From assembly GCA_035312345.1 (NCBI GenBank), contig DATGCC010000534.1, positions 1 through 31,188 of the forward strand: a stretch of DNA of 31,188 bases, given 5' to 3'. The stretch is from Rhodothermales bacterium (GTDB lineage Bacteria > Bacteroidota > Rhodothermia > Rhodothermales > DATGCC01). Each line of letters starts with the position of its first letter. The stretch's first letter is position 1. Below are positions 14,819 through 31,188 of this stretch, piece by piece. The notes under the pieces were generated by a model. It was not told where the DNA came from. It did no database searches and worked only from the letters and a program-made list of their open reading frames with translations. A program made the translations under genes and the position numbers.

Positions 14819-14997
14819 ACGTTAAGGGGCCAGATGCATAGGTGAGATTGGGCGAGACGCCATGGTGTGTCCACAGTGCATACCTAACGGTCAGGTCTCA
14901 GACAAAAAGGACTGCCTCGCTTAAACGACAGAGTACGCAAAACCGCTGCGCAGAGCAAGGGAGCCCCGAAGCGAAACTGCCCGGAAATCACCAATCT

Positions 14998-15049
14998 CAC
15001 ACGTCTCCTTGCCTGTTTCTGAGATGTGTGCTACAACCCAAACCGTAGC
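14998..15049. repeat. Two adjacent hairpins in a divergent intergenic region
   Basis: CACACGTCTC-N13-GAGATGTGTG (14998-15030, one G:U) is followed directly by GCTAC-N10-GTAGC (15030-15049). Confidence 0.45.
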
Positions 15050-15145
15050 GACAGTTATTGCATTACACCCCAGGATTTGGTACGATGGACCGGACCGAGA
15101 AAAACCAGGACCTTGCCCTATGTACCACCAATCCTAGACTAAACC

Positions 15146-16378: not shown

Positions 16379-16390
16379 ACGAGAAACCGT

Positions 16391-17305
16391 TTACTGGCAC
16401 AGGGTGGGATCCGACTTGACGTAATAGCTCTTGTAGTTGCTCGCCTCGGGATCCATGCAGCCCACCAGATTCAGCAGCTCAACTTTGCGGAAATCAAGCG
16501 GGTGTCCCTCGCTCTGAAGCGCGATATACCCCTCCCGTAGTAGTGTGCCGTCCGGCGGCTTAACGGCTGGGTCGTAGTTCTCTACCGCCCCCCCCCCGAT
16601 CTGTGGCTGGGTATACTGCAAGACCGTATCTCCCTCGACGATGTGCGTGATGAGCGAGTCCCCCAACACGATGACCTCGGCCCGGACCCACTGGTCCCCG
16701 TCGTAGGTCTCGGAGGTGGAATTGATGCAATGCGTGGGGTCGAGTTGGCCTTCGTAGACGATGTTCGTGCCCGGTGAGCACATATTGCCTGTCGAGCGAG
16801 GCTCGCCATCGCCAAGGCCGCCGAGGAACTGCATTTCTACGGAGATGGGCCAGTCCTGATCGCGCGGCATCGTCCGTGGGTCCAGTGTGTGCAACATGAC
16901 CCCACTGTTTCGCAGAGCCCAACTCGGGGCTCCCGGCTGCTGCTCGCCTACGAAGCGATACTCGACGACGAGGTGGTAGTGCGAGAAAGGCTGTTTGTAG
17001 TAAAGGTGCCCAAACTGGTTGTTGAAGTCGTCATAGCCATCGTAGCGGACCTTCATTATGCCATCCTCGACGCGGAAGGTGTTCTCCCAGTTTACCCCTA
17101 CGTCGTGGTGGTTGATCTTGACGATCCAGTCATCAATGTCCTGCCCATTGAAGAGCGAAATCCACTCCTGCTCTTCCATTTCTGCCGCTTGCTGGATGTG
17201 ACCGCATCCCATACCTGCCAGTAGCAATACAGGAACGAGGAGCCATCGAGCAACCACCTGGGTAAACCTATGGAGGCAAGTCATATGGAAATTAGTGGTG
17301 GACAT
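16391..17305 (-). CDS. DUF1080 (3-keto-glycoside hydrolase-like) lipoprotein
   Basis: Motifs are WISLFNGQD, NSGV, E.QFLG, G.W...EV.V and GYIALQSEGHPLDFRKVEL. The lipobox-like segment is GMGC. ATG 17287 is an alternative start. Confidence 0.88.
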   Translation of the reverse strand: MSTTNFHMTCLHRFTQVVARWLLVPVLLLAGMGCGHIQQAAEMEEQEWISLFNGQDIDDWIVKINHHDVGVNWENTFRVEDGIMKVRYDGYDDFNNQFGHLYYKQPFSHYHLVVEYRFVGEQQPGAPSWALRNSGVMLHTLDPRTMPRDQDWPISVEMQFLGGLGDGEPRSTGNMCSPGTNIVYEGQLDPTHCINSTSETYDGDQWVRAEVIVLGDSLITHIVEGDTVLQYTQPQIGGGAVENYDPAVKPPDGTLLREGYIALQSEGHPLDFRKVELLNLVGCMDPEASNYKSYYVKSDPTLCQ

Positions 17306-17846
17306 AACATTGGACGGGGTTGATGAGCGGGTGATGTTATGCTTCCTCTTTACGACCCGTCCCCACGGATAAACGCGCTATCCATACTCAGGGCAGGACG
17401 CCTGAAAGCATAATGATTGTACAAACTAATGTAGACACTTTCCTTTGAACGAGGCAAGACCGTCTCGCCCATCGGCGGCTCCAATGGGTTTCATGCGGCG
17501 TTCCGCCTCTCACGCTCAACAAAACCTTATCCTGGGTCAGCAAGGCTCGATTACTATGTGGCTTTCTTGTTGCCGAACAGTTGCTGAAACGTTAATCCCG
17601 GCCCTCCCTCATAGTGCACTTCCAGGTTATAGAGGCTTTCTATTTCAGAATGACCCATCCCCCACGTGGCACCGTTAATCCAACTACAGTGTTATCTGGA
17701 CCGTTTCAAGGGATCATTTATGCAACGTCGGGTCTGACGATACTGGTTTTCCAATGTGTAAAAACTTTGGTATCCTGGGTGGGGCATACACCCCTTCCCT
17801 GAAAGAGCGACGGTCTGCTCAAAGAGCTATTTAGAAGAGTATTGCC

Positions 17847-18719
17847 ATGTCGGATGCGCTTGTAATACGCAATATGACCCGTACTGAGGTAGACGAGCTC
17901 GTTGCCTGGGCTGCACGCGAGGGTTGGAATCCTGGCCTTCATGATGCCGAGGTATTCTGGGCCACGGATCCAGAAGCTTTCATCGCAGCGGATCTGGAGG
18001 GCGAGTTGATTGGCGGCGGAGCCATCACCTCCTACCATGGCGAATTTGGCTTTATGGGTTTCTTTATCGTCCGGCCCGAATACCGCGGCCAGGGTTTAGG
18101 CAATACGCTCTGGCACGCCCGCCGCGACCGGCTTCTGAAACGGCTGCGCCCAGGCGCGAGCATCGGTCTGGACGGCGTCTTTGAGATGCAGGATTATTAT
18201 GCCACGGGTGGTTTCGCCTTCTCTCATCGCAACATGCGTTTCCGGGCCGAGATACCGGATCGCCCCGTGACCTCGCCGGATGACGACAAAAACATCATTC
18301 TGCTGGACACCCTACCGCTCGACCAGATACTCGACTACGACCGCACCTGCTTTCCCGCCTTGCGGCCAACCTTCCTGCAAAAGTGGATATCGCAACCCGA
18401 TGCGCTTGCCCTTGGGTACCAGCGCGATGGGAGGCTGAGCGGATATGGCGTGGTGCGGCGCTGCAGAGAAGGGTGCAAGATCGGCCCCCTGTTCGCTGAT
18501 GATGCCCTGGCGGCCCAGGCCCTTTACATGCACCTGGCAGGGTTCGCCGCTGGTGGCTCCCTGTTTCTCGATGTCCCGGAGAGCAACCCCGCTGCCATCG
18601 AACTTGTGCAGCAACACCAGATGCTTGAAGTCTTCGGCTGCGCGCGGATGTACCTGGGGCCGCCGCCCGATCTGGCGCATGAGCGGATCTTCGGCGTCAC
18701 GACCTTCGAACTGGGCTGA
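17847..18719 (+). CDS. GNAT family N-acetyltransferase (two-domain, YitH-like)
   Basis: It has the acetyl-CoA motif VRPEYRGQGLG, EGWNPG, and a second domain with GYGVVRRCREGCKIGPLFAD...DVPE.N. Confidence 0.88.
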   Translation: MSDALVIRNMTRTEVDELVAWAAREGWNPGLHDAEVFWATDPEAFIAADLEGELIGGGAITSYHGEFGFMGFFIVRPEYRGQGLGNTLWHARRDRLLKRLRPGASIGLDGVFEMQDYYATGGFAFSHRNMRFRAEIPDRPVTSPDDDKNIILLDTLPLDQILDYDRTCFPALRPTFLQKWISQPDALALGYQRDGRLSGYGVVRRCREGCKIGPLFADDALAAQALYMHLAGFAAGGSLFLDVPESNPAAIELVQQHQMLEVFGCARMYLGPPPDLAHERIFGVTTFELG

Positions 18720-19627
18720 TGGCTGAACGCGACCTCATCGGTTATGGTGGCAACCCACCCCATCCGCGATGGCCGGGTGAGGCGCGCGTTGCCGTTCAAT
18801 TTGTGCTCAACATAGAGGAGGGCGCAGAATCATCTATCCTCCATGGGGATGCCCAGTCAGAGGCGTATCTGCACGAGTTGCCGGGCCGCCCACCACGTAG
18901 GGGAGAACGCGACTGGAGCGTCGAGGGCATGTATGAATACGGCTCGCGAGCAGGTGTATGGCGTATCCTGGAACTCTTCAACGCCCGCAACCTTCCACTC
19001 ACCGCCTTCGCTGTCGGCCGAGCCCTAGAACTCAATCCAGGCATCGGTCGTGCGCTTAGTGCTACCGGTCACGAGGTTGCCGGACATGGCTACCGTTGGG
19101 TGGACTATCGCGACATGCCTGAAGACGAAGAGCGACGTCATATCCGTCTTACCTTCGAGATCATCGAGCGAATTTGTGGCACCCCTCCTGTAGGTTGGTA
19201 TACCGGGAGGGTCAGTCAACATACACGCCATCTGTTACGTGAACACGGTGAATTACTTTACCTTTCTGACGCCTACAACGACGACCTTCCTTATTGGCTC
19301 GATGGATCGCCTCCGCACCTGGTGATTCCGTACACCCTGGTTAACAATGATGTCCGCTTTTTGCTGCCGAACGGTTTTTCTTCTGGGGAGGATTTCTTCC
19401 AGTTGCTGAAGGACGCTTTCGACCTCCTGTGGCAAGAAGGCGCACACCGTCCGAAGATGATGAGCGTCGGTCTACATGGGCGAATCAGCGGGCATCCTGC
19501 GCGCGCGATGGCGTTGGCACGCTTTCTCGACTACGTGCAAGGTCACGAGACCGTGTGGATCTGCCGACGAGAAGACATTGCCAGACACTGGATGGCCGAA
19601 CATCCCGCTGAGACGCTGAGGATATAA
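18719..19627 (+). CDS. puuE: PuuE-type allantoinase (polysaccharide deacetylase/NodB fold)
   Basis: Motifs are RDLIGYG...WP..ARVAVQFVLN.EEG.E, YEYGSRAG, HGYRW.DY, GWYTGR, DAYNDDLPYW and KMMSVGLH.R.SG.P.R. Its start overlaps the GNAT stop (TGATG). Confidence 0.85.
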   Translation: MAERDLIGYGGNPPHPRWPGEARVAVQFVLNIEEGAESSILHGDAQSEAYLHELPGRPPRRGERDWSVEGMYEYGSRAGVWRILELFNARNLPLTAFAVGRALELNPGIGRALSATGHEVAGHGYRWVDYRDMPEDEERRHIRLTFEIIERICGTPPVGWYTGRVSQHTRHLLREHGELLYLSDAYNDDLPYWLDGSPPHLVIPYTLVNNDVRFLLPNGFSSGEDFFQLLKDAFDLLWQEGAHRPKMMSVGLHGRISGHPARAMALARFLDYVQGHETVWICRREDIARHWMAEHPAETLRI

Positions 19628-19690
19628 AGAATAGAAACTGCCTGGTAAAATGATTGGGGCCTGCACGCGGCTCGTTTCTGTCCATCAACA

Positions 19691-20185
19691 CTACCTGCTC
19701 TTCGTCGAGCGGCAGAGTCGTTGCCAGAGCCAATACCCCGCGCCTCCAATGATAGGAGCGGTCACTAAGCCTGGGAAATACCCACCCGCGGCGATGGCTA
19801 GAAGCGGATGCGCAATGCCATTGACCATTCCAGCAATGGCGAGGAACCAGGCCGTAAAATACGCGGCGGGTCGCGCCGACCGCACCCCCGGCACCGAGGC
19901 GACCCAGATCCCAATCCACGCCAAGTTGAAGACAACGAAGAAGGAAAAGGGCATCGCTGGCAGACCAAGTAGCGCCCCCAGCCGCTCGGGAAAACCCGTC
20001 GCTGCCTCCTCAACAAAATGAGCCCCCTGAATCCCGAGGGTGAGTGCCAACGCACGGGCGGCGGCGCGGCGCTCTGCCATCTTCTCGAAAGGCGACTGCC
20101 GGTTGCGAGCAAGGCCCAGGGCTGCAAGTGCTACGAGACCGAGAACAAGTAAACTGGGCAGGTTGCTCAGGATAGAATCTTGCAT
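19691..20185 (-). CDS. HXXEE-domain integral membrane protein
   Basis: HFVEE lies within a protein with 4-5 hydrophobic helices, along with N..W, N...H and GGYFPGL.TA. The start is set at MQDSIL (20185). Confidence 0.75.
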   Translation of the reverse strand: MQDSILSNLPSLLVLGLVALAALGLARNRQSPFEKMAERRAAARALALTLGIQGAHFVEEAATGFPERLGALLGLPAMPFSFFVVFNLAWIGIWVASVPGVRSARPAAYFTAWFLAIAGMVNGIAHPLLAIAAGGYFPGLVTAPIIGGAGYWLWQRLCRSTKSR

Positions 20186-20243
20186 GCCTACACGGTGGGC
20201 AGTATGGTAAGGAAGCCGGTCTGCGACGACGTTCAGCCTACTG

Positions 20244-20627
20244 CTACAGCACCCAGAACGCATCCTCGAAGTGCTCGATCTCCGGCTCTTGACCGCCCTG
20301 TAGTACAATGCTGATCACGTCAAAGCGGCAGGGGGAGCCTTCCAGCTTGCGTTCGTAGAGATAAGCTTTCGCAGCGCGGATCAGATGACGCTTTTTCTCC
20401 TCGGTGACGGCCTCTTCCGGGCGGCCAAAGCCCAGCCCCGTGCGCGTCTTGACCTCGGTAAAAATCAGTTCGCCACCCTGCTCATACTGCGCCGCCGGTT
20501 TAAAACAGACCAGATCCACCTCGGCATGCTCGAAGCGATAGTTGCGCTCCAGGATGGTGTAGCCCTGCGCCTCCAGGTAGGCCGCCGCAATGGCCTCGCC
20601 CTGGTCACCGATGTGCTTGGTGGACAT
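20244..20627 (-). CDS. yraN: YraN (UPF0102) family predicted endonuclease
   Basis: Motifs are G..GE..A..YLE..GY.ILERNYR, EVDL, EVKTR, P.EAVT..K and RFDV. Confidence 0.93.
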   Translation of the reverse strand: MSTKHIGDQGEAIAAAYLEAQGYTILERNYRFEHAEVDLVCFKPAAQYEQGGELIFTEVKTRTGLGFGRPEEAVTEEKKRHLIRAAKAYLYERKLEGSPCRFDVISIVLQGGQEPEIEHFEDAFWVL

Positions 20628-20722
20628 TTCTGGGTATGGGTGGTTGGGAAGTTGGCGGGGATGAGAGAAGCGTGTTTGCGAAGAAAGGCCCTATCCCCAT
20701 CCTCCCACACTCACTCACGTTG

Positions 20723-21340
20723 CTATTCCGGGCCGCCCTGCATCGATTCGGCGAGGGCGATGAACTGCTTCATCATCGGGATGTTGCGCTTTTGTACAAA
20801 CGGCAGTAGCGATTGGAAGAAGCCATCGAAGACTTCCATCAGTTCCATCAAGTTTTCGATGCGCTCACAGAACTGCTGGTCTTCCGGGCTGAGATCACCG
20901 CAGGCGACATCCTGGTTGTCCGTCAGCACGTCACGCACGTCCTGGAGTTGCTGCGTGATTGGCGCGATCTCGCGGCGCTCCCGCTCACGGATAATCTGCG
21001 CGGTGATGTGCCACACATCTTTCTCAGCCACATAAAAATCTTTCCGCGATCCGGCCTGATGCACCTTGCGGACGAGGTTCCAGTTGACCAGCGAGTGCAG
21101 GTTCATGTTGGCGTTGCCCCGGCTGATCTGCAAGCGCTCCATGATGGCGTCAGTGTCGAGCGGGTCCTCGGCGACGTAGAGCAGGGCGTGGATCTGTGCC
21201 ATGGTGCGGTTGATGCCCCAGGTCGAGGCCATCTCACCCCAGAAGAGAATAAACCGGTCGAGCGCTTCGTGATACTGCTCGCTGACAGCACTGGCTGCCG
21301 CTTCCGTCGTTGCCTCCGTGGTATCGTGTTTATCGGCCAT
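20723..21340 (-). CDS. GbsR/MarR-family transcriptional regulator
   Basis: Motifs are FILFWGEMASTWGINRTMAQIHALL, ISRGNANMNL..LV.W.LV and RKDFY.AEKDVW. The start is set at MADKH (21340). Confidence 0.88.
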   Translation of the reverse strand: MADKHDTTEATTEAAASAVSEQYHEALDRFILFWGEMASTWGINRTMAQIHALLYVAEDPLDTDAIMERLQISRGNANMNLHSLVNWNLVRKVHQAGSRKDFYVAEKDVWHITAQIIRERERREIAPITQQLQDVRDVLTDNQDVACGDLSPEDQQFCERIENLMELMEVFDGFFQSLLPFVQKRNIPMMKQFIALAESMQGGPE

Positions 21341-21552
21341 CGCGGGCGTTGAGGAATCAAACAATCCGAACCATTGCGGGTATGACCTGTGCTGTTCCGT
21401 CCGGTTCCAGCTTCGGTATAAAAAGGAGCCTGCGCTTCTATGATACCAGGAGCCTGGGAAAGAAGAAAATGCCTGCATGCTCCCCTCTTTCTCTTAAAAA
21501 GAGCGTAGATTTATAGCCTTTCAGCCTCTTAGACTCTCATTCTCTCCTCAAC

Positions 21553-22365
21553 GTGTCTTCGCTACTCACCCTCACCACTGATTTCGGCACCCGCGATGCC
21601 TATGTCGCCGCGATGAAGGGGACGATCCTGTCGATTCACCCCGACGTGCGCTTTATCGACATTTCTCACGAAATTACGCCGCAGGACGTGATGGAAGCTG
21701 CGTTCGTGCTGAGCGAGGCGGTGCCCTATTTCCCGGAGGAAACCCTGCACCTCGTCGTGGTTGACCCCGGCGTCGGCACCACACGCCGCCCGGTAGCCTT
21801 GCGGCATGGCGGACATACGTTCGTCGGACCGGACAACGGCCTCTTCGCGTTGCTGCTGGATGGCGAGCCACCGGATGAACTCGTCGTGCTGGATCGATCT
21901 GCGTTCTGGCGCACCTCCGACATCAGCGACACCTTCCATGGTCGAGATGTGTTTGCCCCTGTCGCCGCGCACCTGGCTGCCGGACGTGCGCTCAACGACA
22001 TTGGCACCCCCATCGAGTCGCTGAAACCGTTGCACTGGGCGCTGCCCATCGACGACGACCAGGGCGTGCAAGGCTGGGTAGTGCATGTGGACCGGTTTGG
22101 CAACTGCATCACCAACATTCCGCGCCCGCTCTTCGAGCGCCAGCGCGATGGACGCCCGCTTAAGTGTTTCGTCGGCAACGCGATCCTTGAAGGAGTCCAC
22201 ACGACCTATGGCGATACCGAGGCCGGCGAGCCACTGCTGCTCTTCGGCAGCAGCAACTTCCTGGAGATCGCCGTCAACACCGGGAACGCATCGAACCTGC
22301 TCGACATTCGTAAGGGCACACCGGTTAATGTCCTGTTTAAAGACGTCGAACCTAAGAGCCTATGA
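21553..22365 (+). CDS. SAM hydroxide adenosyltransferase (DUF62; fluorinase/chlorinase superfamily)
   Basis: Motifs are TLTTDFG..D.YV..MKG, VVDPGVGT.R, TFHGRDVFAP, HVDRFGNCITN and LEIAVN.G. It has a GTG start. Confidence 0.92.
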   Translation: MSSLLTLTTDFGTRDAYVAAMKGTILSIHPDVRFIDISHEITPQDVMEAAFVLSEAVPYFPEETLHLVVVDPGVGTTRRPVALRHGGHTFVGPDNGLFALLLDGEPPDELVVLDRSAFWRTSDISDTFHGRDVFAPVAAHLAAGRALNDIGTPIESLKPLHWALPIDDDQGVQGWVVHVDRFGNCITNIPRPLFERQRDGRPLKCFVGNAILEGVHTTYGDTEAGEPLLLFGSSNFLEIAVNTGNASNLLDIRKGTPVNVLFKDVEPKSL

Positions 22366-22439
22366 ATCTAAGGGCCTGAGAGACTAAGAAAGAAAAAGCG
22401 CTGTCTTACCTTCTCGTAATCTCCCAGACTCATAGGCTC
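22356..22439. repeat. Intergenic inverted repeat plus degenerate tandem units
   Basis: GAGCCTATGA (22356-22365) and TCATAGGCTC (22430-22439) form a perfect 10-bp inverted pair. CTAAG units recur with a 16-bp period. CTCCCAGAC occurs twice (22421-22429, 22436-22444). Confidence 0.55.
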
Positions 22440-22448
22440 CCAGACAAA

Positions 22449-23762
22449 ATGCCTGAATCCATCGATCCTCGTCGCGAAGCCCTGCTGGCGCATCTGCAAA
22501 GCGTCTACCTGCTGGCGCGTGTGCTGGCGCAAGATGAGGACCGAGCGACGCAGTTGGTAGAGGACACCTACACGCAGGCCTTCGTGATGCTGCCGCCCCA
22601 CCAGGACGACGACGAGGCCAAGCACGCCCTCCTCCAGTTGCTCACCCAGATCCATCAAGAGCAAACGGCCCTCTACACCGATGGCGATGCGTCTGCCGCC
22701 GTCGTTGACGAGACGCTGCAATCTGTACGTCGTCATCTGGCCGAGGAAATCACGACCCGCACGCTGCCCGTCGTCCTCTCGACCCTTCCGCATCAGCAGC
22801 GCCTCGTGTTGCTGTTGTGCGAAGTGGAAGGCTTTAGCTGCACCGAGGCGGCTCCCTTGCTCCACCTTGATGAAGCGGTCGCCTGCGACGCCCTGACCCA
22901 GGCGCGATCTACACTGAAAAACGATTTCAGGAGTGAGCTAACCAAACGGGAGCAAAACCTGGTTGCCACGAGCCTGCCCAAAGGATGGCTGGGAGGAGCT
23001 CTGAAACAGGCTTTCAGTACGACGTTTGGCACGGTCCCTGCCGCCATACGCTCGACGCTGCTCGAAGCCCAGGTTGCAAAACCAGTAGTGGCTGAGACAC
23101 CGGAGGAAAACAACGCCCCCTTGCCGCCTGAAGATGGCTCGGAAGCCGACCACCTGCCGCGTCTGCCTATACCGCGCGTCCGCACGCTGCCGAAGCCTGA
23201 ACCCAAAGGCCTCTCGCCCGCGATACGGCGCGGGCTGCTGGTGACGCTGCTTATCATTGTCGTCGGGCTGACGGGGTATTTTGCCTCGCGGTCGGTGGAA
23301 GAAACGCCTGAAACCAACCTCATCACCCTCTCGGTAAAGCAGGCTGAAGACCTCACTGCCACCTTTCCCACAAGCAGCCTGCGGCAGGCCGAGGAATACG
23401 TCCGAGGCAATCTAGGCCAGCGCATGACGCTCCCCACCATCGACGGGGCCACCCTCACAGGCGTAGGTGTCCGCAAACCGGCACCCGACGTATCCGTCCC
23501 GGCGTTTTTCTATCAGGATGAACGCGAGGCGGGGCAAACGCTGGTGCTCTACGTGTACAACTACGCCCTGCTGAACCAGTTTGAGGACCGCCTCTCCCTC
23601 GAACCTGATATCCTGCGCCAGATTCAGGAAGAGCAACGCTTCGACCTGCACGACCTCGGTGAACGGCAGGTGCTCGTCTGGCGCAACCGCGATGATATTT
23701 ATGTGGCCGTCACCCCCGGCGACGCCGAGACCCTGCGCCACCGCATCCTTTTCCCTTCTTGA
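22449..23762 (+). CDS. Degenerate ECF sigma-like domain fused to a transmembrane anti-sigma-like domain
   Basis: There is a region-2-like stretch (VYLLARVLAQDEDRATQLVEDTYTQAF) and a region-4-like stretch (LPHQQRLVLLLCEVEGFSCTEAAPLL). A single TM helix (GLLVTLLIIVVGLTGYF) follows. The C-terminal domain (LPTIDGATLTGVG...VLVW.N.DDIYVAVT) resembles extracytoplasmic anti-sigma domains. Confidence 0.7.
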   Translation: MPESIDPRREALLAHLQSVYLLARVLAQDEDRATQLVEDTYTQAFVMLPPHQDDDEAKHALLQLLTQIHQEQTALYTDGDASAAVVDETLQSVRRHLAEEITTRTLPVVLSTLPHQQRLVLLLCEVEGFSCTEAAPLLHLDEAVACDALTQARSTLKNDFRSELTKREQNLVATSLPKGWLGGALKQAFSTTFGTVPAAIRSTLLEAQVAKPVVAETPEENNAPLPPEDGSEADHLPRLPIPRVRTLPKPEPKGLSPAIRRGLLVTLLIIVVGLTGYFASRSVEETPETNLITLSVKQAEDLTATFPTSSLRQAEEYVRGNLGQRMTLPTIDGATLTGVGVRKPAPDVSVPAFFYQDEREAGQTLVLYVYNYALLNQFEDRLSLEPDILRQIQEEQRFDLHDLGERQVLVWRNRDDIYVAVTPGDAETLRHRILFPS

Positions 23763-23776
23763 GTCTAGCTGCTTCC

Positions 23777-24397
23777 TCAGGCAGCCTGCAAAACAGCCTC
23801 AGCAGAAACGATCTGCACCCCGGCCTCCCGCATTTCGTCCCAGGCACGGGCAAGCGAACCCTGCGTATCGATCCCACGTACCGCCTCTTCTACGACGTAC
23901 ACCTCAAAGCCCAGCCTTTTCCCATCAAGCGCTGACCATTTGACACAGAAATCCGTTGCCAGCCCGACCAGATAAAGTGTATCGATAGAACGTTCGCGGA
24001 GGTAGCCTGCCAGCCCGGTGGGGGTCTTTTGATCGTTCTCAAAAAAGGCTGAGTATGAATCGATGGTGCGGCGGAAGCCTTTGCGCAGGATGAGTTCGGC
24101 GCGATCCTGATGCAAGGCAGGATGAAATGCGGCTCCCCTGGTACCTTGAACACAATGATCCGGCCATAAGACCTGCTCGCCATAGGCCAAATCGACGGTG
24201 TCGTAGGGCTGTCTGTCAGCATGGGAAGACGCAAACGAGTGATGCCCTTGCGGATGCCAGTCCTGCGTCAGAATCACATGCTCGAAGGAGGAAGCCAAAC
24301 CATTGACGTGTGGAATGATCGCATCGCCATCGGGTACGGCCAGCGAGCCGCCTGGGCAAAAATCGTTCTGGACGTCAATGACGAGAAGGGCCTTCAT
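23777..24397 (-). CDS. pncA: Nicotinamidase/pyrazinamidase
   Basis: Motifs are ALLVIDVQNDFCPGGSL, TQDWHP..H.SF, LWPDHCVQG, RKG....DSYSAF and GLATDFCV. The start is set at MKALL (24397). Confidence 0.95.
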   Translation of the reverse strand: MKALLVIDVQNDFCPGGSLAVPDGDAIIPHVNGLASSFEHVILTQDWHPQGHHSFASSHADRQPYDTVDLAYGEQVLWPDHCVQGTRGAAFHPALHQDRAELILRKGFRRTIDSYSAFFENDQKTPTGLAGYLRERSIDTLYLVGLATDFCVKWSALDGKRLGFEVYVVEEAVRGIDTQGSLARAWDEMREAGVQIVSAEAVLQAA

Positions 24398-24478
24398 GGT
24401 GAATGGGCGGGAATGTGTTTGATGAGCCTGTGTGCTTTCCCTACGCCCCAACGCCCATCCTGTTTTCTGAGAACTGCT

Positions 24479-25567
24479 TTACAACGACAACACAAGACCA
24501 CCGCCCACTTCAAAGCCAGAGAAATCGCCGAAGGTGTAGATGAAGCGGGATTGCAGCCGTACCGAGGGCGATACGGCTACTTCTGGCAGGAGCCCTGCAT
24601 CGAACAGCGACGCTTTCTCGAAGAGGCTGGTCTCGTCATAGAGACGCGCCTGCCCGAGAAGCCCCACCCACACCATGTTGCCTAATGCTTGCCGATATGC
24701 CAGGCGAATCAGCCCCTGCGCCGGAAGCGTCCGCAACGCCTCGTCGGTGCCACCGGCTCCGGCAGGCAGGCTGCTCTCCGACTGGCCCCGGTAGCGCCCT
24801 ACCACACGTAACTCGTTGACCCCGAAGTATGTCAGCACCTGTCCTGTCGCTACCAGGCGATCGCCTACAGCGAAGACTTCTTCCTCGCCTAACTTGTCGC
24901 TGGTGTACGTTGTGTAGGTTACATCAGCAGAGAGGTTGGTGGTAGGAGCAGCTTTGATGTCCAGACCGCCGGTAATGATAATTTCATCGCCAGGATCATA
25001 ATCTTCTGGCATCTCGGCAAGGGGTCGATAGGCCCCCTTGTACTGGTAGGAAGCCCCCAGCCCCAGCACCACAGTTTCGCTCATCGGAAATGCCCAGACG
25101 AACCCCGGTGCCACATTGAATCCCTGCCCGAAGCCAGGAATACGAAAATCATAGAAATGCTGGCTCAGCAGCAGCGAGGTCTGGAATTCTTGTTCCGTGA
25201 GTTCGCGTTTGCCACTGGGCAGGTTGGCACCGAGGCTCAGCACGAGGCTGCTCGATCCAATCTTCTGCAAGAAGCTCAGGCCCGCCTGCACATCGCTGAC
25301 GCCACTGAGGCTTTCGAGATTATCACCCGTGGCAGACGCCTGCCCGGCTTGCAGGCTGAAGGCTACTTTTTGACCGATCGGCACCAGGATGGAAACCGGC
25401 ACGCTGACTTCAGAGACCTGAAGGCTATCCCTCTCATACGTCTGATATAGCGCATTGACGGAGACCCGTATGGGCTGCCGCTGGCTCGACAGGTACATAC
25501 TTCCCTCCTGGGCGAAGCTCGGTAGCGTCAGCCCCAACAAAAGCAAGATGAACAGCGTCCGTTTCAA
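24479..25567 (-). CDS. Putative outer-membrane beta-barrel protein (COG4313/Phenol_MetA_deg-like)
   Basis: It has a signal peptide (SFA|Q), alternating amphipathic strands and the LSG.SD...G and GANLPSG segments. It starts with TTG after a strong SD. Confidence 0.65.
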   Translation of the reverse strand: MKRTLFILLLLGLTLPSFAQEGSMYLSSQRQPIRVSVNALYQTYERDSLQVSEVSVPVSILVPIGQKVAFSLQAGQASATGDNLESLSGVSDVQAGLSFLQKIGSSSLVLSLGANLPSGKRELTEQEFQTSLLLSQHFYDFRIPGFGQGFNVAPGFVWAFPMSETVVLGLGASYQYKGAYRPLAEMPEDYDPGDEIIITGGLDIKAAPTTNLSADVTYTTYTSDKLGEEEVFAVGDRLVATGQVLTYFGVNELRVVGRYRGQSESSLPAGAGGTDEALRTLPAQGLIRLAYRQALGNMVWVGLLGQARLYDETSLFEKASLFDAGLLPEVAVSPSVRLQSRFIYTFGDFSGFEVGGGLVLSL

Positions 25568-25569
25568 AA

Positions 25570-25577
25570 CTCCTCCT
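25570..25577 (-). promoter_or_regulatory. Shine-Dalgarno sequence for the barrel gene
   Basis: The minus strand reads AGGAGGAG between the stop at 25582 and TTG 25567. Confidence 0.7.
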
Positions 25578-25581
25578 GTAT

Positions 25582-28500
25582 TTATCGTAGCAAAAGCATC
25601 TTGCGCGACGCCGTGAAGCCATCCGCTTGCAGGCGGTAGATGTAAACGCCACTGGCAACCGACTGCCCTGCCTCATCACGCCCATCCCAGCGGACTTCGT
25701 AGGTCCCACTCGTCTGATCGGACTGTACCAGCGTGCGTATTCGCTGCCCGAGCACGTTGAAGATGACAAGCTCGACGGTACTCTGCACGTTGAGGCTGTA
25801 GCGGATGACCGTTTCGGGATTGAATGGGTTGGGATAGTTGCCTTCCAGGGCGTACTCCGTCGGCACGAGCGAGACGCCCTCACTTTCTGCCTCGGCAAAC
25901 GCCTTGGTGCCTATGACGACGCGCAGGTGCCGCACGGGCTGATCCCTGGACAACGTCAGGCTCAAGACGCCCTCCGAGGCAGGCAGCACACGTCCCTCAT
26001 CCAGATCGATCACATACCGCTCGAAACCCTCTGGACGCACGCCGTGCTCCATCAGTCCTACCTGTACCGGGATAGTCCGCGTCTGCACATGCTTCAGCGA
26101 CGATACATCGAGTTCGAGATCCCAGGTACCGCCCTGTTCTGTCAATGGCTTGAAGGCGCTGGCATAGGCGTTGCCCTCTTGCATCACACGCAAGCGTACA
26201 GCGGATCCGATGCCCGGTGGTTCTGGCCAGTCGAGCATATCCCATCCCGTCCGCGCCGCTTCGGCAAAACCGATGAAGTTCTGCGTGTCGTGCAGATCCT
26301 GCTCCGGCACGTCGGCGCGGATTTGAAGCATATAGCTGGCTTCCGCAAACAAGGGATTCGCCTCTGCCTGCTTCCCCGCACTCTCCGAGGCAATGGGCGG
26401 CACCGCGAGCGTGACCGGCGTTGCGTCCGGGTTGAAGACGAAATACCCATCCCAGGGTCGTATCTGTGATACACCCATCTGATAATCGGTGCCATCGAAG
26501 AAATATGGCCCCTGCACGGCACTGCTGTTGCCGACACCACTCCAGTCCACGGGAAACAGGAACGGGTCGCCGATCTGGTTCCAGCCAGGCTCCAGCGTGA
26601 TCTCGAAAGGCGACTCCAGGTTGCGAGAGACGCCATTCTCGACATCGAAGCCTTCGCCGGTGTTCGTCACAAGCCACGCTGCGATGCCCGCATTTTGGAA
26701 GCTGGACGTACCCTCATACTCCTGATACATTTCAGCCGTCGCATTCCACCGAGACATCCGCCAGACACTAGGATCCAGGGGCCCATAATCGTCAGTAAAC
26801 TGGGCCGCTACGCTGGGATCGTCCAGCGCCAGCGGAAACGACACCATCCGGTAGGCCTCCGGGGTGAGCACAAAATCGGAGCGGGTTTCCTGTGGACTGA
26901 GCGACGCGACACGAACGCGCAGTTGGAGCGGCTCGCTCGGCGTAGAGAAGGTTATCGTTTCCCCACCGAGATCAAACTCGGCATAATACTGCACCCCGCG
27001 AGGCGTCACGTAGGAGGCAGGAACCTGCCCCTCCACCGTCCCCCCACTGGCTACCAGCGGCGTCGATGCATAGGCCTGCTCTCCCCCTCGCCGGTAGAAC
27101 AACTGCCCGCTGGCGCTCTGCAAATCCGTTGGTACCTGGAAGCCAAGCTGGGTAGGCGTATTGGTATCTACGGTAGCAGGTGACTCATGCTGCACCTCCA
27201 TGCCATTGCCAGAGAGGGCAATGTTGCGTTGCGGCGTGTCTGGGTCGTCGCTCTCGATTCGCAATATCGCGGTCTTGGCTCCTGCGGTTCCTGGACTGAA
27301 GGTGAGGTTCAGGGTGCGTGTTGCGTCGGGGGCCAGCGTTGAGGCGCTGGCATCTTCTATCTGAAAAGCATTCGCATTGGCTCCGCCTATCGTCAGACCC
27401 GAAAGACTCAGGTCGGCATTGCCTATGTTGGTGAGTACGAATGGCAAAGCGGCTGTACGCCCCACCGTGACCGTGCCGAATTCGACTTGCCCGGCTTGCA
27501 GCATGAGGTCAGGTTCGAGGCCGCGCCCCGTCAGCGAGACGGTTACTCCCGCTAGCGGTCCATCCACAGGCCCCTCGTTTCCGGGGATCAGGTCATCAAT
27601 GTCCAGAATGGCAGCCTGCTCGCCGCCTGTGGGCCTAAATGTCACCGTGAGGGTTTGACTCACCCCGGCTGCCATGGTCAGCGTGCCTTGTGGATCTACG
27701 GTAAAAGCATCCTCACCACTTACCACCACTTCAAGATCGACAGGATCAGCACAGGTGTGACCTACGATGACTTCCTGCATGGCGACCTCTCCCACCCGCA
27801 CGTCCCCGAAGGGTAGGCTATTCTCGGAGACCTGAATAGCACAATTGCTCGTCCCCATGAGCGCAATATCAAGCACAGGTTCATCGGGGTCGTTGCTCAG
27901 AATGCGCAAGGTGGCCGTCTGCGGACCATCCTCTGTGGGCGTAAAGGTCACTTCGAGATTAAACGATCCGTCTGGAGCCACCACACGCGCCCCACCCATT
28001 GCCGTAACCTCAAACTGACCACTCCCCCCGATGATTGGTGTGTCGGAGATCTGTAAATCGCTGTTGCCAAGATTGCGCACTGTTACCTGCCGGATGACGG
28101 GCGTGCCCACCGCTACCGTCCCAAAGTTCAGGCTTCTGTTTTGGACCACAATGTTGGGAGCCACTGCTTCTCCCTGCAAAACGAGCGCGATGGGTTCTAT
28201 CTCACTCTCGATGAGCACCGCAGCGTCTGCCGAACCCGTTGCCTGGGGAGCATAGGTGAAGGTAATCGTTTGCCGCTCGCCGGAAGGAAGCACAAAAGCC
28301 TCGGGGGTAGCGCTGAAGCTGCCGGTGTCATCCTCAAAGATGCCTACCGACATATTCAGCGGGAATTGTTCGGTATTCTCTACCGCATACTCATAGGTGG
28401 CTTCCTCGCCGACCACAACGATACCGAAATCTATAACCTCTGGTTCGGCTGGCACTTCGCCCTCGCCTGCCAGGGGCACGCCTACAACGGGAGCGTTAGG

Positions 28501-29562
28501 ATCGTTGCTGGTGATGCGCACGTTGGCTTCCAGGATGCCCTCCTCAAGCGGCTCGAACGTTACAGGCAGCACAACAGACTCGGCGGGATCTAGCACATAG
28601 CCCGATGTGGGCACGCCGAAGGAGGCCGCATCCATTCCCGTCACCTCAACCTCTACCACAAGATCTGCCGTCCCGATGTTGGTGATGGTCAGGTTTTCAA
28701 CGGCACTATTCCCGATCAGCACCGGGTCGAAGTCGAGAGACAGGGGGTCCACGTCGATAATAGGAAGCGGCTGTGGGATGCCTTCGCCTGAGAGTTCTAT
28801 TCTGTTATCAATGGGCAGGCTTGCTTTTGAAGAGATCACTTCTGAGACAATGACCAGGTCATCCACAAAGGAACCAACGGACTGCGGCTGAAAGGATACC
28901 TGAATGGTGGTACCTGCTCCCGGTGTCAGGACAAATCCGGCCGGCGTGCTGGTAGAAAAAGGCGATAGGGACCCCTCGACAAAGATATCATCGATAAAAA
29001 GATCAAGGTTGATTTCGTTCACAATCTCCAGACTCATCGTCGTCGTCGTGCCTACGATCCTTGGTCCAAAATCGAGTGGGTTGGCTGACGCGGAAAAACT
29101 CGATATCCCTGTCCCGCTAAGGGGCACCATGGTAAGGTCAGCCGCTTCATTTTTGGGTGCGGCACTACCCAGATTCCACTCTACAACCAGGTTGTCTGAG
29201 AGACGCCCCAGTGCTGCAGGGTCGAAGTAGACCGTGAAGGACAACGACTCTCCCTCGCTCAAAAAGCAGGGAAACATACCCCCCATACATTGGGAAGTAT
29301 CAACAATTACAAAGAACGATGACGAATTGCCTTCTACGAAAACATTTTCTATCAAATCCCCCGCAGAGTCATTGGCCGTGATGGTACCCAGAACATTATC
29401 GCCATTCCCAATCCGTTCCAGCCCAAAGGTGATGGGGTTGGGCGTCACTGTAATGCCCTGGGCAGTGGCAACGGAGACAAAGCCTATCGTGAGCAGCAAT
29501 GCCCCCAACAGCTTGCTCAAGCGCGATGCATGATGTGTGACACGTACAACGAGCATGGTCAT
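25582..29562 (-). CDS. Large secreted protein with seven ASH/choice-of-anchor-D Ig-like repeats, an unknown central module and a C-terminal T9SS/FlgD-Ig sorting domain
   Basis: It has a signal peptide (ATA|Q). Repeats follow the pattern P..LDFG.V.VG......I.N.G..DL...V.F.P...G...A.L.I.SND......L.G.G. The CTD is YALEGNYPNPFNPET.IRY...GQRIRTLV...WDGRD..G..VASGVY.YRL...RKMLLLR. Confidence 0.9.
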   Translation of the reverse strand: MTMLVVRVTHHASRLSKLLGALLLTIGFVSVATAQGITVTPNPITFGLERIGNGDNVLGTITANDSAGDLIENVFVEGNSSSFFVIVDTSQCMGGMFPCFLSEGESLSFTVYFDPAALGRLSDNLVVEWNLGSAAPKNEAADLTMVPLSGTGISSFSASANPLDFGPRIVGTTTTMSLEIVNEINLDLFIDDIFVEGSLSPFSTSTPAGFVLTPGAGTTIQVSFQPQSVGSFVDDLVIVSEVISSKASLPIDNRIELSGEGIPQPLPIIDVDPLSLDFDPVLIGNSAVENLTITNIGTADLVVEVEVTGMDAASFGVPTSGYVLDPAESVVLPVTFEPLEEGILEANVRITSNDPNAPVVGVPLAGEGEVPAEPEVIDFGIVVVGEEATYEYAVENTEQFPLNMSVGIFEDDTGSFSATPEAFVLPSGERQTITFTYAPQATGSADAAVLIESEIEPIALVLQGEAVAPNIVVQNRSLNFGTVAVGTPVIRQVTVRNLGNSDLQISDTPIIGGSGQFEVTAMGGARVVAPDGSFNLEVTFTPTEDGPQTATLRILSNDPDEPVLDIALMGTSNCAIQVSENSLPFGDVRVGEVAMQEVIVGHTCADPVDLEVVVSGEDAFTVDPQGTLTMAAGVSQTLTVTFRPTGGEQAAILDIDDLIPGNEGPVDGPLAGVTVSLTGRGLEPDLMLQAGQVEFGTVTVGRTAALPFVLTNIGNADLSLSGLTIGGANANAFQIEDASASTLAPDATRTLNLTFSPGTAGAKTAILRIESDDPDTPQRNIALSGNGMEVQHESPATVDTNTPTQLGFQVPTDLQSASGQLFYRRGGEQAYASTPLVASGGTVEGQVPASYVTPRGVQYYAEFDLGGETITFSTPSEPLQLRVRVASLSPQETRSDFVLTPEAYRMVSFPLALDDPSVAAQFTDDYGPLDPSVWRMSRWNATAEMYQEYEGTSSFQNAGIAAWLVTNTGEGFDVENGVSRNLESPFEITLEPGWNQIGDPFLFPVDWSGVGNSSAVQGPYFFDGTDYQMGVSQIRPWDGYFVFNPDATPVTLAVPPIASESAGKQAEANPLFAEASYMLQIRADVPEQDLHDTQNFIGFAEAARTGWDMLDWPEPPGIGSAVRLRVMQEGNAYASAFKPLTEQGGTWDLELDVSSLKHVQTRTIPVQVGLMEHGVRPEGFERYVIDLDEGRVLPASEGVLSLTLSRDQPVRHLRVVIGTKAFAEAESEGVSLVPTEYALEGNYPNPFNPETVIRYSLNVQSTVELVIFNVLGQRIRTLVQSDQTSGTYEVRWDGRDEAGQSVASGVYIYRLQADGFTASRKMLLLR
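27199..29457 (-). repeat. Seven tandem ASH-like domains of about 100-115 aa (protein-level repeat)
   Basis: Approximate residue ranges are 36-153, 155-262, 266-369, 370-467, 468-572, 574-682 and 684-788. Each begins near an F(G/D) motif and ends in L.G.G/L.G.A-like residues. Confidence 0.8.
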
Positions 29563-29604
29563 TACGGATTAACGATGAAACGCTTCCTGGTGCAATAGCT
29601 CTGC

Positions 29605-30960
29605 CTATTGATTCCCGGAGCGCGTCGGCGGGTCGGGAGGATCGGGGAGGCCCACTGCACACGCCCCTTCCAAACAGGCATCAGCAGGCCGCCGCTGCCC
29701 GGTGCCCGGCAAAAGCCCGGCCTCCAGGTTGGTGTTGAGATTGTTCAAGAGATTAGTCATCGGGCTGGCCCCAAAGGCAGGCACCAGTCCCGGCGTCGGA
29801 TCGGCCTGGAAGGCTGACGTGAGCGCGGTATTCAGGGTGCCGCCTGCCAGCGCCATGCCTTCGTTTTCCTCGGCTTTGTCCTGCGCAAGCCGAAAGTTCG
29901 GATCATGGATAGTGGCCTGCCGATAGTAGGTGGCCGCCTCGCCAAACACGCCCGCATCTTCGCTTTCGAGGCCCCGGCTATAGGCCAGAAACGCTTGCAA
30001 GTTTTGTGTCGGGATACGCTCAATGCGCTGGCGTTCTTCAGGAGTCGGCTCGATACCCATGCGGGCAAGCACATCGAAGACGAGTCTTTTCTCAAGCGCC
30101 ATGAAGCGGCTCAGGCCGTCGGACTGGGGATCGAGGTCGTTGCGCTGCTCGTTTTCCCAGAGGGCTGCGTCGAGCCGCAGGTTGTCGCCCGGCAGCACAT
30201 TGTAGACGCCGCCCACGAGCCGTCCTGCGCCTACGAGGCAGCCCATACGCGGGGCCGTCGCCGGATCGAAACCCTCGCTGGCAGAGAGGCGCATCTCATC
30301 CAGCAGATCCTGCAAACGTGCCCGTTCTACGAGTTCCAGGCCCTCTACCTGGCTCAGGTCGATGCTGATGAGTTCGGCCATGCCGCGCCCGAGGGGCGCA
30401 TAGCGCGATTCGTCGCCCTGGTAATCCAGCGGGTACACGGCCACCTGGTCGGTTGCCGGGGGTGTAGAACATAGTTCACTGCCCTGCGCCTGCAACCGCG
30501 CCTCTTCGGCGAGGCGAGCCTGCACCTCTTGCTCCCGAATCTGGCGCACAACCCACACATAGCGCCCCGCCATCAACTTGCGATAGGGCGAGAGGCGTGA
30601 CACTTCGGGGTATTCGGCGTAGAGCCGGAGGGCTGTCTCTCGCTTGCCCAGCACCTCGTTCGTCAGCCCGAGGTGGTAGAGCGTCTTGGGATCGTCGGGG
30701 TCGCGGCTGAACGCTGCTTCCAGCCGGTCGCTCGCCTGCCCATAGTTGGACGTACGCAGGTTGATGATGCCGAGGTCGCGCAACGCATCGGCGTCATTGG
30801 GATTGAGCGCGATTTGCTCTTCCAGCCGGGCGATGGTGTCGGCATAGTCCGCTTCGTCCTGGAGGAGCCGGGGCTGCGTTGCACATCCTCCTGCCACGAA
30901 GCCTACAAGGAGCACCACGCACAACGTCCACGACAAAGTAAAACGCGAGCAACCAAACAT
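29605..30960 (-). CDS. Lipoprotein with TPR repeats and a CsgG/HfaB (TolB-N/LpoB-like fold) domain
   Basis: The lipobox is AGGC after a hydrophobic stretch from ATG 30960. TPRs include NPNDADALRDLG and DPDDPKTLYHLG. The domain reads VAVYPL...LGRGMAELISIDLS.V..L.LVER..L..LL.EM.L...G...GA..LV.G. A C-terminal TPR ends in DPNF..A. Confidence 0.85.
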   Translation of the reverse strand: MFGCSRFTLSWTLCVVLLVGFVAGGCATQPRLLQDEADYADTIARLEEQIALNPNDADALRDLGIINLRTSNYGQASDRLEAAFSRDPDDPKTLYHLGLTNEVLGKRETALRLYAEYPEVSRLSPYRKLMAGRYVWVVRQIREQEVQARLAEEARLQAQGSELCSTPPATDQVAVYPLDYQGDESRYAPLGRGMAELISIDLSQVEGLELVERARLQDLLDEMRLSASEGFDPATAPRMGCLVGAGRLVGGVYNVLPGDNLRLDAALWENEQRNDLDPQSDGLSRFMALEKRLVFDVLARMGIEPTPEERQRIERIPTQNLQAFLAYSRGLESEDAGVFGEAATYYRQATIHDPNFRLAQDKAEENEGMALAGGTLNTALTSAFQADPTPGLVPAFGASPMTNLLNNLNTNLEAGLLPGTGQRRPADACLEGACAVGLPDPPDPPTRSGNQ

Positions 30961-31083
30961 GCGTTTGAGGATCTGGTTAGGACAGAGATGGGCAGAGCGG
31001 AAGAGCCATGTAGCACGCATCGTCCAATATAGACAATTTACGACGTGATGTGTAATGCAGAAACAGGACAATTCCCACATGAA

Positions 31084-31120
31084 ACAAGTGGGACAACTTT
31101 TGCAAAATCGTCCCACTTGT
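31084..31120. promoter_or_regulatory. Perfect 11-bp inverted repeat (candidate operator) containing a sigma54-like -24/-12 element
   Basis: The sequence is ACAAGTGGGAC-N15-GTCCCACTTGT with a central TTTTGCAAAA palindrome. The plus strand TGGGACAACTTTTGCA (31089-31104) has GG-N10-GC spacing. Confidence 0.55.
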
Positions 31121-31188
31121 AAATGCTTTAGCATATCCTCTGCATGCAGCTTAGGGCAGCGAGCCGCCGCTTGACTTGCCGTCCTGGC

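Follow-up and report, generated by a model that had tools for sequence, protein, structure and literature searches.

We analysed a window of 31,188 bp, the whole of one contig (C534) of a Rhodothermales metagenome-assembled genome (MAG; 1,009 contigs, 87% complete) from a soil metagenome. Between positions 24479 and 30960 its minus strand carries three co-oriented open reading frames (ORFs), for a lipoprotein, a type IX secretion system (T9SS) cargo protein and an outer-membrane β-barrel. We propose that these genes make up the outer-membrane side of a conserved system spanning the envelope, in which a platform would dock or sense a T9SS surface protein and would be wired to an enzyme of the inner membrane; we give this reading an even chance of being right. 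Its foundation is a gene set that is conserved, co-oriented and tightly spaced, and whose signalling enzyme is interchangeable, being either a PEGA kinase with PP2C and FHA partners or a CHASE2 cyclase. Judged from the sequences compared, the barrel gene always appears with one or two TPR/CsgG-like genes, of which one product is predicted to be lipidated and the other is usually a soluble periplasmic paralogue. Usually it is also accompanied by genes for a T9SS protein, apparently built from a fixed base module of 420 residues and a swappable head, and for an inner-membrane enzyme with a predicted periplasmic sensor domain. The system would probably serve to hold the surface protein on the cell or to report on it.

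Three genes cut off from a larger cluster

In the order in which they are read, the genes encode a TPR/CsgG-like protein (lipoprotein 2; 29605-30960, 451 aa, ATG start at 30960), the T9SS cargo (25582-29562, 1326 aa) and the barrel (24479-25567, 362 aa), a protein of an unnamed family with a TTG start, a signal peptide and 16-18 strands. They are separated by 42 nt (lipoprotein/cargo) and 14 nt (cargo/barrel; the cargo stop codon occupies 25582-25584), and a Shine-Dalgarno sequence, AGGAGG (25572-25577, minus strand), lies 4 nt before the TTG of the barrel gene at 25567. A preliminary description of this DNA had listed the three co-oriented genes with these gaps, a strong Shine-Dalgarno site and an upstream palindrome, and all of these are present in the sequence. 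It had also described the products as exported envelope proteins, which was borne out, and as devoid of any recognizable catalytic motif, in agreement with which none of the three matched an enzyme family in Pfam or NCBIfam. The sequence sets listed as containing the stretch are all DNA contigs, from soil and sediment metagenomes, and no RNA set is among them.

Upstream of the lipoprotein start, the contig continues for just 228 nt. Its last 38 nt (31151-31188, minus strand) are the 3' end of an upstream TPR/CsgG-like paralogue, 11 codons and a TAA, the remainder of the gene being cut away by the contig end; read from 31188 to 31151 they encode ...QDGKSSGGSLP followed by the stop. In the closest complete genome (G036, locus L022) another gene stands before the lipoprotein gene, and when the MAG was searched with it, a second contig was identified, C393, whose TPR/CsgG-like protein ends in ...QGGKSSGGSLP and is thus the same in 10 of the 11 residues. 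On the minus strand of C393 (locus L051), reading upstream, are the gene for this protein (paralogue 1; L051:61-1173, 370 aa, CsgG 42.8 bits, its signal peptide being of the ordinary kind and lacking a lipobox Cys), a gene for a Hanks-type Ser/Thr kinase (710 aa, Pkinase 169.9 bits, with one transmembrane segment at 375-402 followed by two PEGA domains) and a gene for a PP2C phosphatase (56.8 bits). No FHA gene was seen on C393, whose end lies just upstream of the PP2C gene.

Bases 1-98 of C393 and window positions 31089-31188 are 86% identical, and a 35-nt part belonging to the hairpin described below is identical in both. C393 would be either the continuation of the window or the same locus from a co-assembled strain, the assembly having probably broken at the inverted repeat between two co-occurring strains. 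Independently, a Logan contig from the probable source run (X1) covers 30265-31188 and then runs 1,179 nt beyond the window end. Since the last 38 nt of the window end a paralogue gene, and since both C393 and the Logan contig extend upstream, the three genes appear to lie at the distal end of a cluster that comprises six genes or more and is cut by the contig end.

The inverted repeat (31086-31118), between the genes for the upstream paralogue and the lipoprotein, reads AAGTGGGAC-N15-GTCCCACTT; it is perfect over 9+9 positions, with 0 such repeats expected by chance, and occurs as a single copy in the MAG. As RNA it is predicted to form a hairpin of 17 pairs (-25.4 kcal/mol, z = -5.7). No proper U-tract follows the hairpin, for which attenuator, terminator and operator are candidate roles. 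Downstream of it, a sigma-70-like promoter match, TACACA-17-TATATT (31026-31054, minus strand), agrees with the consensus at 9 of 12 positions, which is weak evidence when 5 such sites occur in the region against 2.9 expected.

The preliminary description had taken the trio for a self-contained operon for surface assembly, with the lipoprotein and the barrel as its core and arbitrary passengers between them. The promoter-like site and the hairpin, which precede the lipoprotein gene, would fit such an operon, and among the distant contexts of these genes there do exist a stand-alone trio of lipoprotein, ASH cargo and barrel (L054) and a pair of lipoprotein and barrel (L053). Against it stand the further gene that the contig end cuts within the window and the assignment of the kinase and PP2C genes on C393 to the same cluster, the kinase or cyclase genes found in most loci, and a passenger that always carries the same 420-aa module. 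We find such an operon barely credible.

Conservation of the gene set

The genomic neighbourhoods of the barrel were examined in an even set of 301 genomes of the phylum, 18 kb around each barrel match being compared by tblastn and ORF clustering. The barrel is encoded in 19 of these genomes. A CsgG-like gene is present at every one of the 18 other barrel loci, as anticipated by the earlier suggestion that lipoprotein and barrel are a conserved pair, and 12 of the 18 contain a cargo gene whose product has the conserved module (residues 791-1240, 25-44% identity) and a C-terminal sorting domain (CTD). A Ser/Thr kinase with PEGA domains is encoded at nine and a CHASE2 cyclase at five, one or the other thus being found at 14/18. 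Of the 19 barrel genomes, 18 encode the base module itself. Co-occurrence in other genomes, which the preliminary description had named as a check, was therefore observed: the genes are syntenic in dozens of genomes, and chance adjacency was rejected on these grounds.

The reciprocal scan, in which GTDB genomes were searched with the base module alone (hidden Markov model searches of six-frame ORFs), gave 79 named loci, the best 80 of 404, in MAGs labelled Rhodothermales, Rubricoccaceae, Ignavibacteria, KSB1, Calditrichota and others. The barrel gene lies on the same strand as the module in 67 of the 79. When the comparison is confined to the 39 loci that are well flanked (>=8 kb upstream and >=1.7 kb downstream), the barrel is found in 38, a CsgG-like gene in 37 and the kinase in 28. 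The gene order of the window, ...CsgG-CsgG-cargo-barrel, is seen at 44 loci, and ...CsgG-CsgG-barrel-cargo at 23.

Two subfamilies can be told apart by their enzymes. Subfamily A has the order [FHA]-PP2C-kinase(PEGA)-paralogue 1-lipoprotein 2-[cargo]-barrel. Subfamily B (L034-L039) has the order haem-binding protein, TPR/CsgG-like protein, cargo, barrel, short CsgG-like protein, 832-aa exported protein and CHASE2 cyclase; a CHASE2 adenylate/guanylate cyclase is encoded at five of its six loci and a Ser/Thr kinase at none. The two subfamilies thus have, in the same cluster, signalling enzymes that are unrelated to each other but both bear a periplasmic sensor domain. Subfamily B comes from genomes G233, G109, G061, G161, G065 and G289 and is also seen at L056:63-2243 and L057:2654-4807; its haem-binding protein belongs to PF14376, its short CsgG-like protein is about 250 aa long, and its 832-aa exported protein is without clear family. 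Further distant contexts include a permuted cargo-barrel-lipoprotein order and a kinase-CsgG-CsgG-cargo-barrel-kinase block beside genes of a type VI secretion system (T6SS). At L055 (ERZ25073157 contig_21), a distant copy of the gene set has as its neighbours two kinases, a barrel of the Phenol_MetA_deg family and the T6SS genes DotU, IcmF and TagF.

The preliminary description had left the choice between a surface-assembly and a sensing system; an inner-membrane signalling enzyme in so many of the barrel loci favours the latter. The same kinase/PP2C/FHA or CHASE2-cyclase genes would also suit a sensor of the state of the envelope, in which the barrel and the CsgG-like/TPR pair would inform the kinase or cyclase of damage to the outer membrane or of its composition, and the cargo would be an output or a bystander. 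A lipidated protein combined with a soluble paralogue parallels TagQ and TagR (PMC13713981), in L029-L034 and L053 the lipoprotein gene adjoins the barrel gene without an intervening cargo gene, and the conserved segments of the barrel are probably periplasmic (see below). These points are set against a module-barrel link that is tighter than the link to the kinase (38/39 vs 28/39 well-flanked loci), a stop-to-start gap between cargo and barrel of only 14 nt in the window, and the location of the conserved part of the cargo in its C-terminal base, not in its head. On balance an envelope-state sensor of this kind seems unlikely.

The cargo: variable head, fixed base and sorting domain

The cargo begins with a hydrophobic segment ending in ATAQG, read by eye, which is its putative signal peptide (29458-29562, minus strand). 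The head that follows (27193-29457, minus strand; residues about 36-790) consists of seven ASH/choice-of-anchor D Ig-like repeats, recognized by NF012200 with 298.8 bits in seven stretches. At the other end of the protein is the sorting domain (25585-25842, minus strand), which scores 38.1 bits against TIGR04183 (cut-off 23) and 38.3 bits against FlgD_ig; Por_Secre_tail (22.6 bits) and the type B model CHU_C (17.2 bits) both remain below their cut-offs of 27. By these scores the CTD appears to be of type A and not of type B, and it is expected to be functional because the MAG encodes both PorU (NF033707, 963.5 bits, over the cut-off) and SprA (SprA_N, 302.5 bits). The identification of the cargo as a T9SS protein with ASH repeats, made in the preliminary description, was confirmed.

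Between head and CTD lies the conserved pre-CTD module (25843-27192, minus strand; residues 791-1240, 420-450 aa). It matches no Pfam or NCBIfam family, and a search of the PDB with its sequence returned nothing. AlphaFold2, supplied with an alignment of 67 sequences, predicts three β domains with high confidence (pLDDT 90.5, pTM 0.88), and recurrent motifs are YxMxSxPL, WRxFRW, GWNQIGNPF and PWxGYFV. At a threshold of E<=1e-3, a profile built from 15 copies retrieves 11,713 cluster representatives from 1.84 billion proteins, and at E<=1e-30 it retrieves 3,181. In those full-length matches that were checked, about 87-96 aa separate the end of the module from the C-terminus, a CTD-sized tail following it directly, and the parts N-terminal to it range from none to >5,000 residues. 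In the ESM Atlas the shape of the whole module recurs (TM 0.59-0.84) in uncharacterised proteins with T9SS tails from Fidelibacterota, Bacteroidota, Ignavibacteriota and Armatimonadota, whose clusters also include peptidase S8, LRR, Glug or PATR families. Domain 1 accounts for the entries that fill the lists of structural matches, and none is listed for the other two domains. In giant proteins of 3,000-4,000 aa, the first ~60 positions of the module, without the rest, are repeated in tandem 18-20 times; because of these tandem copies, the FN3-like first subdomain appears to serve also as a stand-alone repeat.

In orthologous clusters the head is exchanged: ASH repeats are replaced by β-propellers, by TIG+MAM, by Sortilin/BNR or by almost nothing (619 or 795 aa in total). 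Since the C-terminal module and the CTD are conserved and only the head varies, the cargo does not appear to be a free passenger, its base being instead a fixed component. The earlier proposal of variable passenger genes was consequently right for the N-terminal head and wrong for the remainder, as the 420-aa module and CTD are as conserved as the barrel and almost always encoded beside it. Within the MAG, about 50 ORFs bear a CTD and only two match the module, the better of which is the one beside the barrel. A constant module and CTD with variable heads is a layout that suggests a surface protein anchored by its base. A second cargo with the same base module lies convergent or in tandem beside the same barrel at L022 (G036:C1, 14173-18069, minus strand), L024, L026, L082 and L083; one platform may serve more than one surface protein.

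The outer-membrane barrel

The barrel has no Pfam match at E<=0.1, and its homologues, about 100 in a large protein collection, are all labelled hypothetical. The AlphaFold2 model is a closed all-β barrel (pLDDT 82.4) without a POTRA or any other periplasmic domain, the mature chain being predicted to start about 10 residues before strand 1. Comparison of folds by VIA-align gave 16-strand barrels as the closest matches, namely, CdiB (Z 20.7, with the further values 3.1 and 283), a BamA model (19.4), FhaC (18.3), PgaA (17.9), PelB (17.7) and porins (16-17). The Foldseek TM scores are <=0.53, and the structural matches of the model define a size class and not a family. Membership in Omp85/TpsB was rejected because the POTRA domain is lacking. 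The PorP_SprF model (PF11751) matches another locus of the MAG (C823), not the barrel gene.

Outside the strands, conservation is highest in segments 117-150, which includes a short helix, and 178-194. Both follow even-numbered strands in the DSSP list, and, because of this parity, they are probably periplasmic turns or a plug on the periplasmic side if the N-terminus is periplasmic. The first (window about 25118-25219) comprises 34 residues, with invariant P117, E127, T130, G147 and G149, and is the most conserved stretch of the family; it could possibly be a periplasmic docking site or a plug. By way of comparison, the loop at 261-283 is long, variable and modelled with low confidence, as would be expected of an external loop. 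Prediction of a complex between the barrel and the cargo module with its CTD gave a score of 0.00 (no controls), which speaks neither for nor against their binding.

Another reading is that the barrel might itself translocate the cargo or act as its usher, the TPR/CsgG-like proteins being periplasmic chaperones that replace POTRA, in a dedicated route of export, insertion or chaperoning that operates alongside T9SS or takes its place. In Z, however, the barrel's best match exceeds ordinary porins by no more than about 3-4 units, and a function cannot be read from shape alone. The barrel is also devoid of periplasmic domains, and the cargo keeps a CTD that scores as type A in a MAG that has PorU and SprA. 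We therefore judge such a route distinctly unlikely.

The lipoprotein and its CsgG-like domain

The longest ORF of the lipoprotein gene extends to 31134, and the ATG at 30960 was chosen as the start because the lipobox and N-termini of homologues align there. From this start the protein has the lipobox ...VAGG-C, with Cys26 as the lipobox Cys. An N-terminal TPR region (about 30607-30861), a CsgG/LpoB-like α/β domain (30025-30468) and a C-terminal TPR (about 29887-29997), all on the minus strand, follow. Pfam assigns TPR repeats and a borderline CsgG match (21.2 bits, cut-off 20.8). Among 25 aligned central domains, CsgG is matched by 23 (best 7e-13), LpoB by 12, FlgO by 8 and TolB_N by 2. The nearest ESM Atlas clusters to the lipoprotein are TPR + CsgG proteins (score 0.99). 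A search with the full lipoprotein profile returned TPR proteins alone, and a profile search with the CsgG-like domain returned nothing meaningful. The TPR/CsgG-like proteins share a conserved proline-rich tail, LPxPPxPP in the consensus of the family alignment, after a low-complexity linker (window 29605-29650).

In the window protein and in the relatives with printed coverage, the match extends over only ~7-99 of the 210 positions of the CsgG profile, and the domain is about 150 aa long. Because of this restriction, it is best regarded as a periplasmic α/β part of the LpoB/FlgO/TolB-N type, with no sign of the membrane hairpins or channel of CsgG. The match gives no evidence for the secretion channel that the preliminary description listed among the roles of the CsgG/HfaB/TolB-N/LpoB fold. 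That description had also noted that curli genes are missing, with which our search agrees: CsgF and curlin repeats (PF10614, PF07012) were not found in the 87%-complete MAG, the E. coli control being positive. On the partial CsgG match and the missing CsgF and curlin, a curli system was rejected.

A CsgG/PelC-like lipoprotein ring beneath a 16-strand barrel, with the TPR moved onto the lipoprotein, would be the arrangement of a PelBC-like exporter for a polymer or another non-protein substrate. The genes that travel with the barrel, in contrast, are for a protein cargo and signalling enzymes, and no gene for polysaccharide synthesis is present in window positions 13886-31188, on C393 or among the clusters shared by the 19 barrel loci. 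PelB does not stand above the other 16-strand barrels in Z. An exporter of this type is very improbable.

A proposed mechanism

In the envelope-spanning system that we propose, the two CsgG-like/TPR proteins would be seated beneath the outer membrane on the conserved periplasmic turns of the barrel, in the manner of the PelC ring on PelB. The cargo would exit via T9SS and, on removal of its CTD, the mature protein would have the conserved module as its C-terminal end, close to the cell. Through this base module the cargo would be the barrel's cognate partner at the surface, whether by docking on it or by being sensed through it, with the seven ASH repeats projecting outward as a rod. By way of the periplasmic scaffold, the state of the platform would reach the PEGA ectodomain of the kinase, and from there FHA/PP2C targets in the cytoplasm; in the sister subfamily it would reach the CHASE2 domain of the cyclase.

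A more specific form of this proposal, which we advance as decidedly tentative, makes the 420-aa module a docking foot by which T9SS proteins with interchangeable heads (Ig rods, propellers and possibly peptidase S8 and LRR) plug into a barrel/CsgG-like platform that is hard-wired to a kinase or cyclase. If correct, this would be a new device for outside-in signalling across the envelope in the FCB group and neighbouring phyla, one that reports what a surface protein touches or whether it is in place.

Several observations weigh against the proposed system. All of the evidence is genomic context and predicted folds. If the conserved barrel segments are periplasmic, little conserved surface would be left for docking from outside. 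The kinase is absent from some clusters (L023, L027 and L033), for which reason signalling may be an add-on and not the core function. At six of the 18 barrel loci the cluster lacks a cargo with the module, and one barrel genome (G213) has no module at all; conversely, eight of the 26 genomes of the phylum sample with strong module matches do not have this barrel family. With these eight genomes, and with the 79 loci being the top fifth of the relatives, the linkage of module and barrel may be looser in the wider family. C393, only 86% identical to the window in the overlap, may derive from a co-assembled strain and not be the literal continuation.

Neighbouring genes in the window

An isochorismatase/nicotinamidase-family gene (23777-24397, minus strand) lies 81 nt downstream of the barrel gene, with no terminator-like site between them. 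It was considered as a fourth member and rejected, as it was not seen again in the gene clusters that the barrel loci have in common; at L054 an isochorismatase gene is also found a few kb from the gene set. Farther along, on the plus strand (22449-23762), is a gene for a 437-aa protein with weak matches to sigma-70 region 4 and to the sigma-like domain of PhyR.

Comparison with known systems

Neither the combination of PEGA, CsgG, kinase and outer membrane nor that of CsgG-like proteins with type IX secretion is described in the open-access text that was searched. New elements are a fixed, very widespread and unannotated base module in the T9SS partner that predicts the barrel, the swap between kinase and CHASE2 cyclase, and a locus that the contig end had cut. 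A domain family of >11,000 sequence clusters that lacks a Pfam entry marks a distinct class of T9SS cargo, and the exchange of kinase for CHASE2 cyclase in sister clusters is a natural experiment that points to a signalling role. The recurring, cross-phylum list of parts bears on how T9SS proteins are retained outside Bacteroidia and on how information travels from the surface to eukaryote-like kinases in diderms.

The CsgG curli channel (type VIII secretion) is likewise a lipoprotein, and it is the N-terminal α/β part that the Pfam CsgG model matches here. The match is partial, the membrane part comes from a separate barrel gene, and the MAG yielded neither CsgF nor curlin. The PelBC exopolysaccharide exporter, in which a PelC ring sits on PelB (PMC12141448), shares with the present system a small α/β lipoprotein under the outer membrane, TPR and a barrel of roughly 16 strands. 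It differs in that the TPR is fused here to the lipoprotein and not to the barrel, in the absence of pel-type synthesis genes and in partners that are a protein cargo and signalling enzymes. The ring on the periplasmic rim is nonetheless the best structural analogy for the way in which CsgG-like proteins could meet the barrel.

PorA of P. gingivalis, a T9SS cargo protein that is also a ligand for an inner-membrane sensor of the PorY/PorX system (PMC12152298), provides a precedent for a T9SS cargo as the ligand of a kinase. In the periplasm, however, it is the CTD of PorA that signals to a histidine kinase, and no dedicated barrel or CsgG-like proteins take part. A parallel to the signalling side is the threonine phosphorylation pathway of the P. 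aeruginosa H1-T6SS, composed of TagQ/TagR (with TagS/T), PpkA, PppA and Fha1 (PMC13713981). Both have an outer-membrane lipoprotein and a soluble periplasmic partner upstream of a single-pass Hanks kinase with PP2C and FHA partners; the C393 kinase has one transmembrane segment, a periplasmic domain and a PP2C gene beside it, and FHA proteins are encoded at related loci. One distant homologous cluster even adjoins T6SS genes (DotU/IcmF/TagF). The present system is distinguished by its PEGA ectodomain, barrel and T9SS cargo, by a window free of T6SS genes and by the CHASE2 cyclase of the sister subfamily, and the parallel is one of gene arrangement.

The anchoring side has its counterpart in PorP-PorE-PG1035 of P. 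gingivalis and SprF-SprB of F. johnsoniae, in which a barrel and PorE anchor T9SS proteins with a type B CTD (PMC9143113). As with PorP/SprF, the gene for a T9SS surface protein is directly beside that for a dedicated barrel; as with PorP/PorE, the set includes an outer-membrane-associated periplasmic protein that contains TPR, and the proposed role is likewise retention of the cargo on the surface. In contrast to those systems, the barrel in the window does not match PorP_SprF, the CTD of its cargo is of type A, the periplasmic partners are CsgG/LpoB-like and not PorE, the cargo has a conserved pre-CTD module of 420 aa, and a kinase or cyclase is attached. By analogy, and with no demonstrated family membership in either, the system would work most like a PorP/PorE anchor combined with a TagQR-PpkA input.

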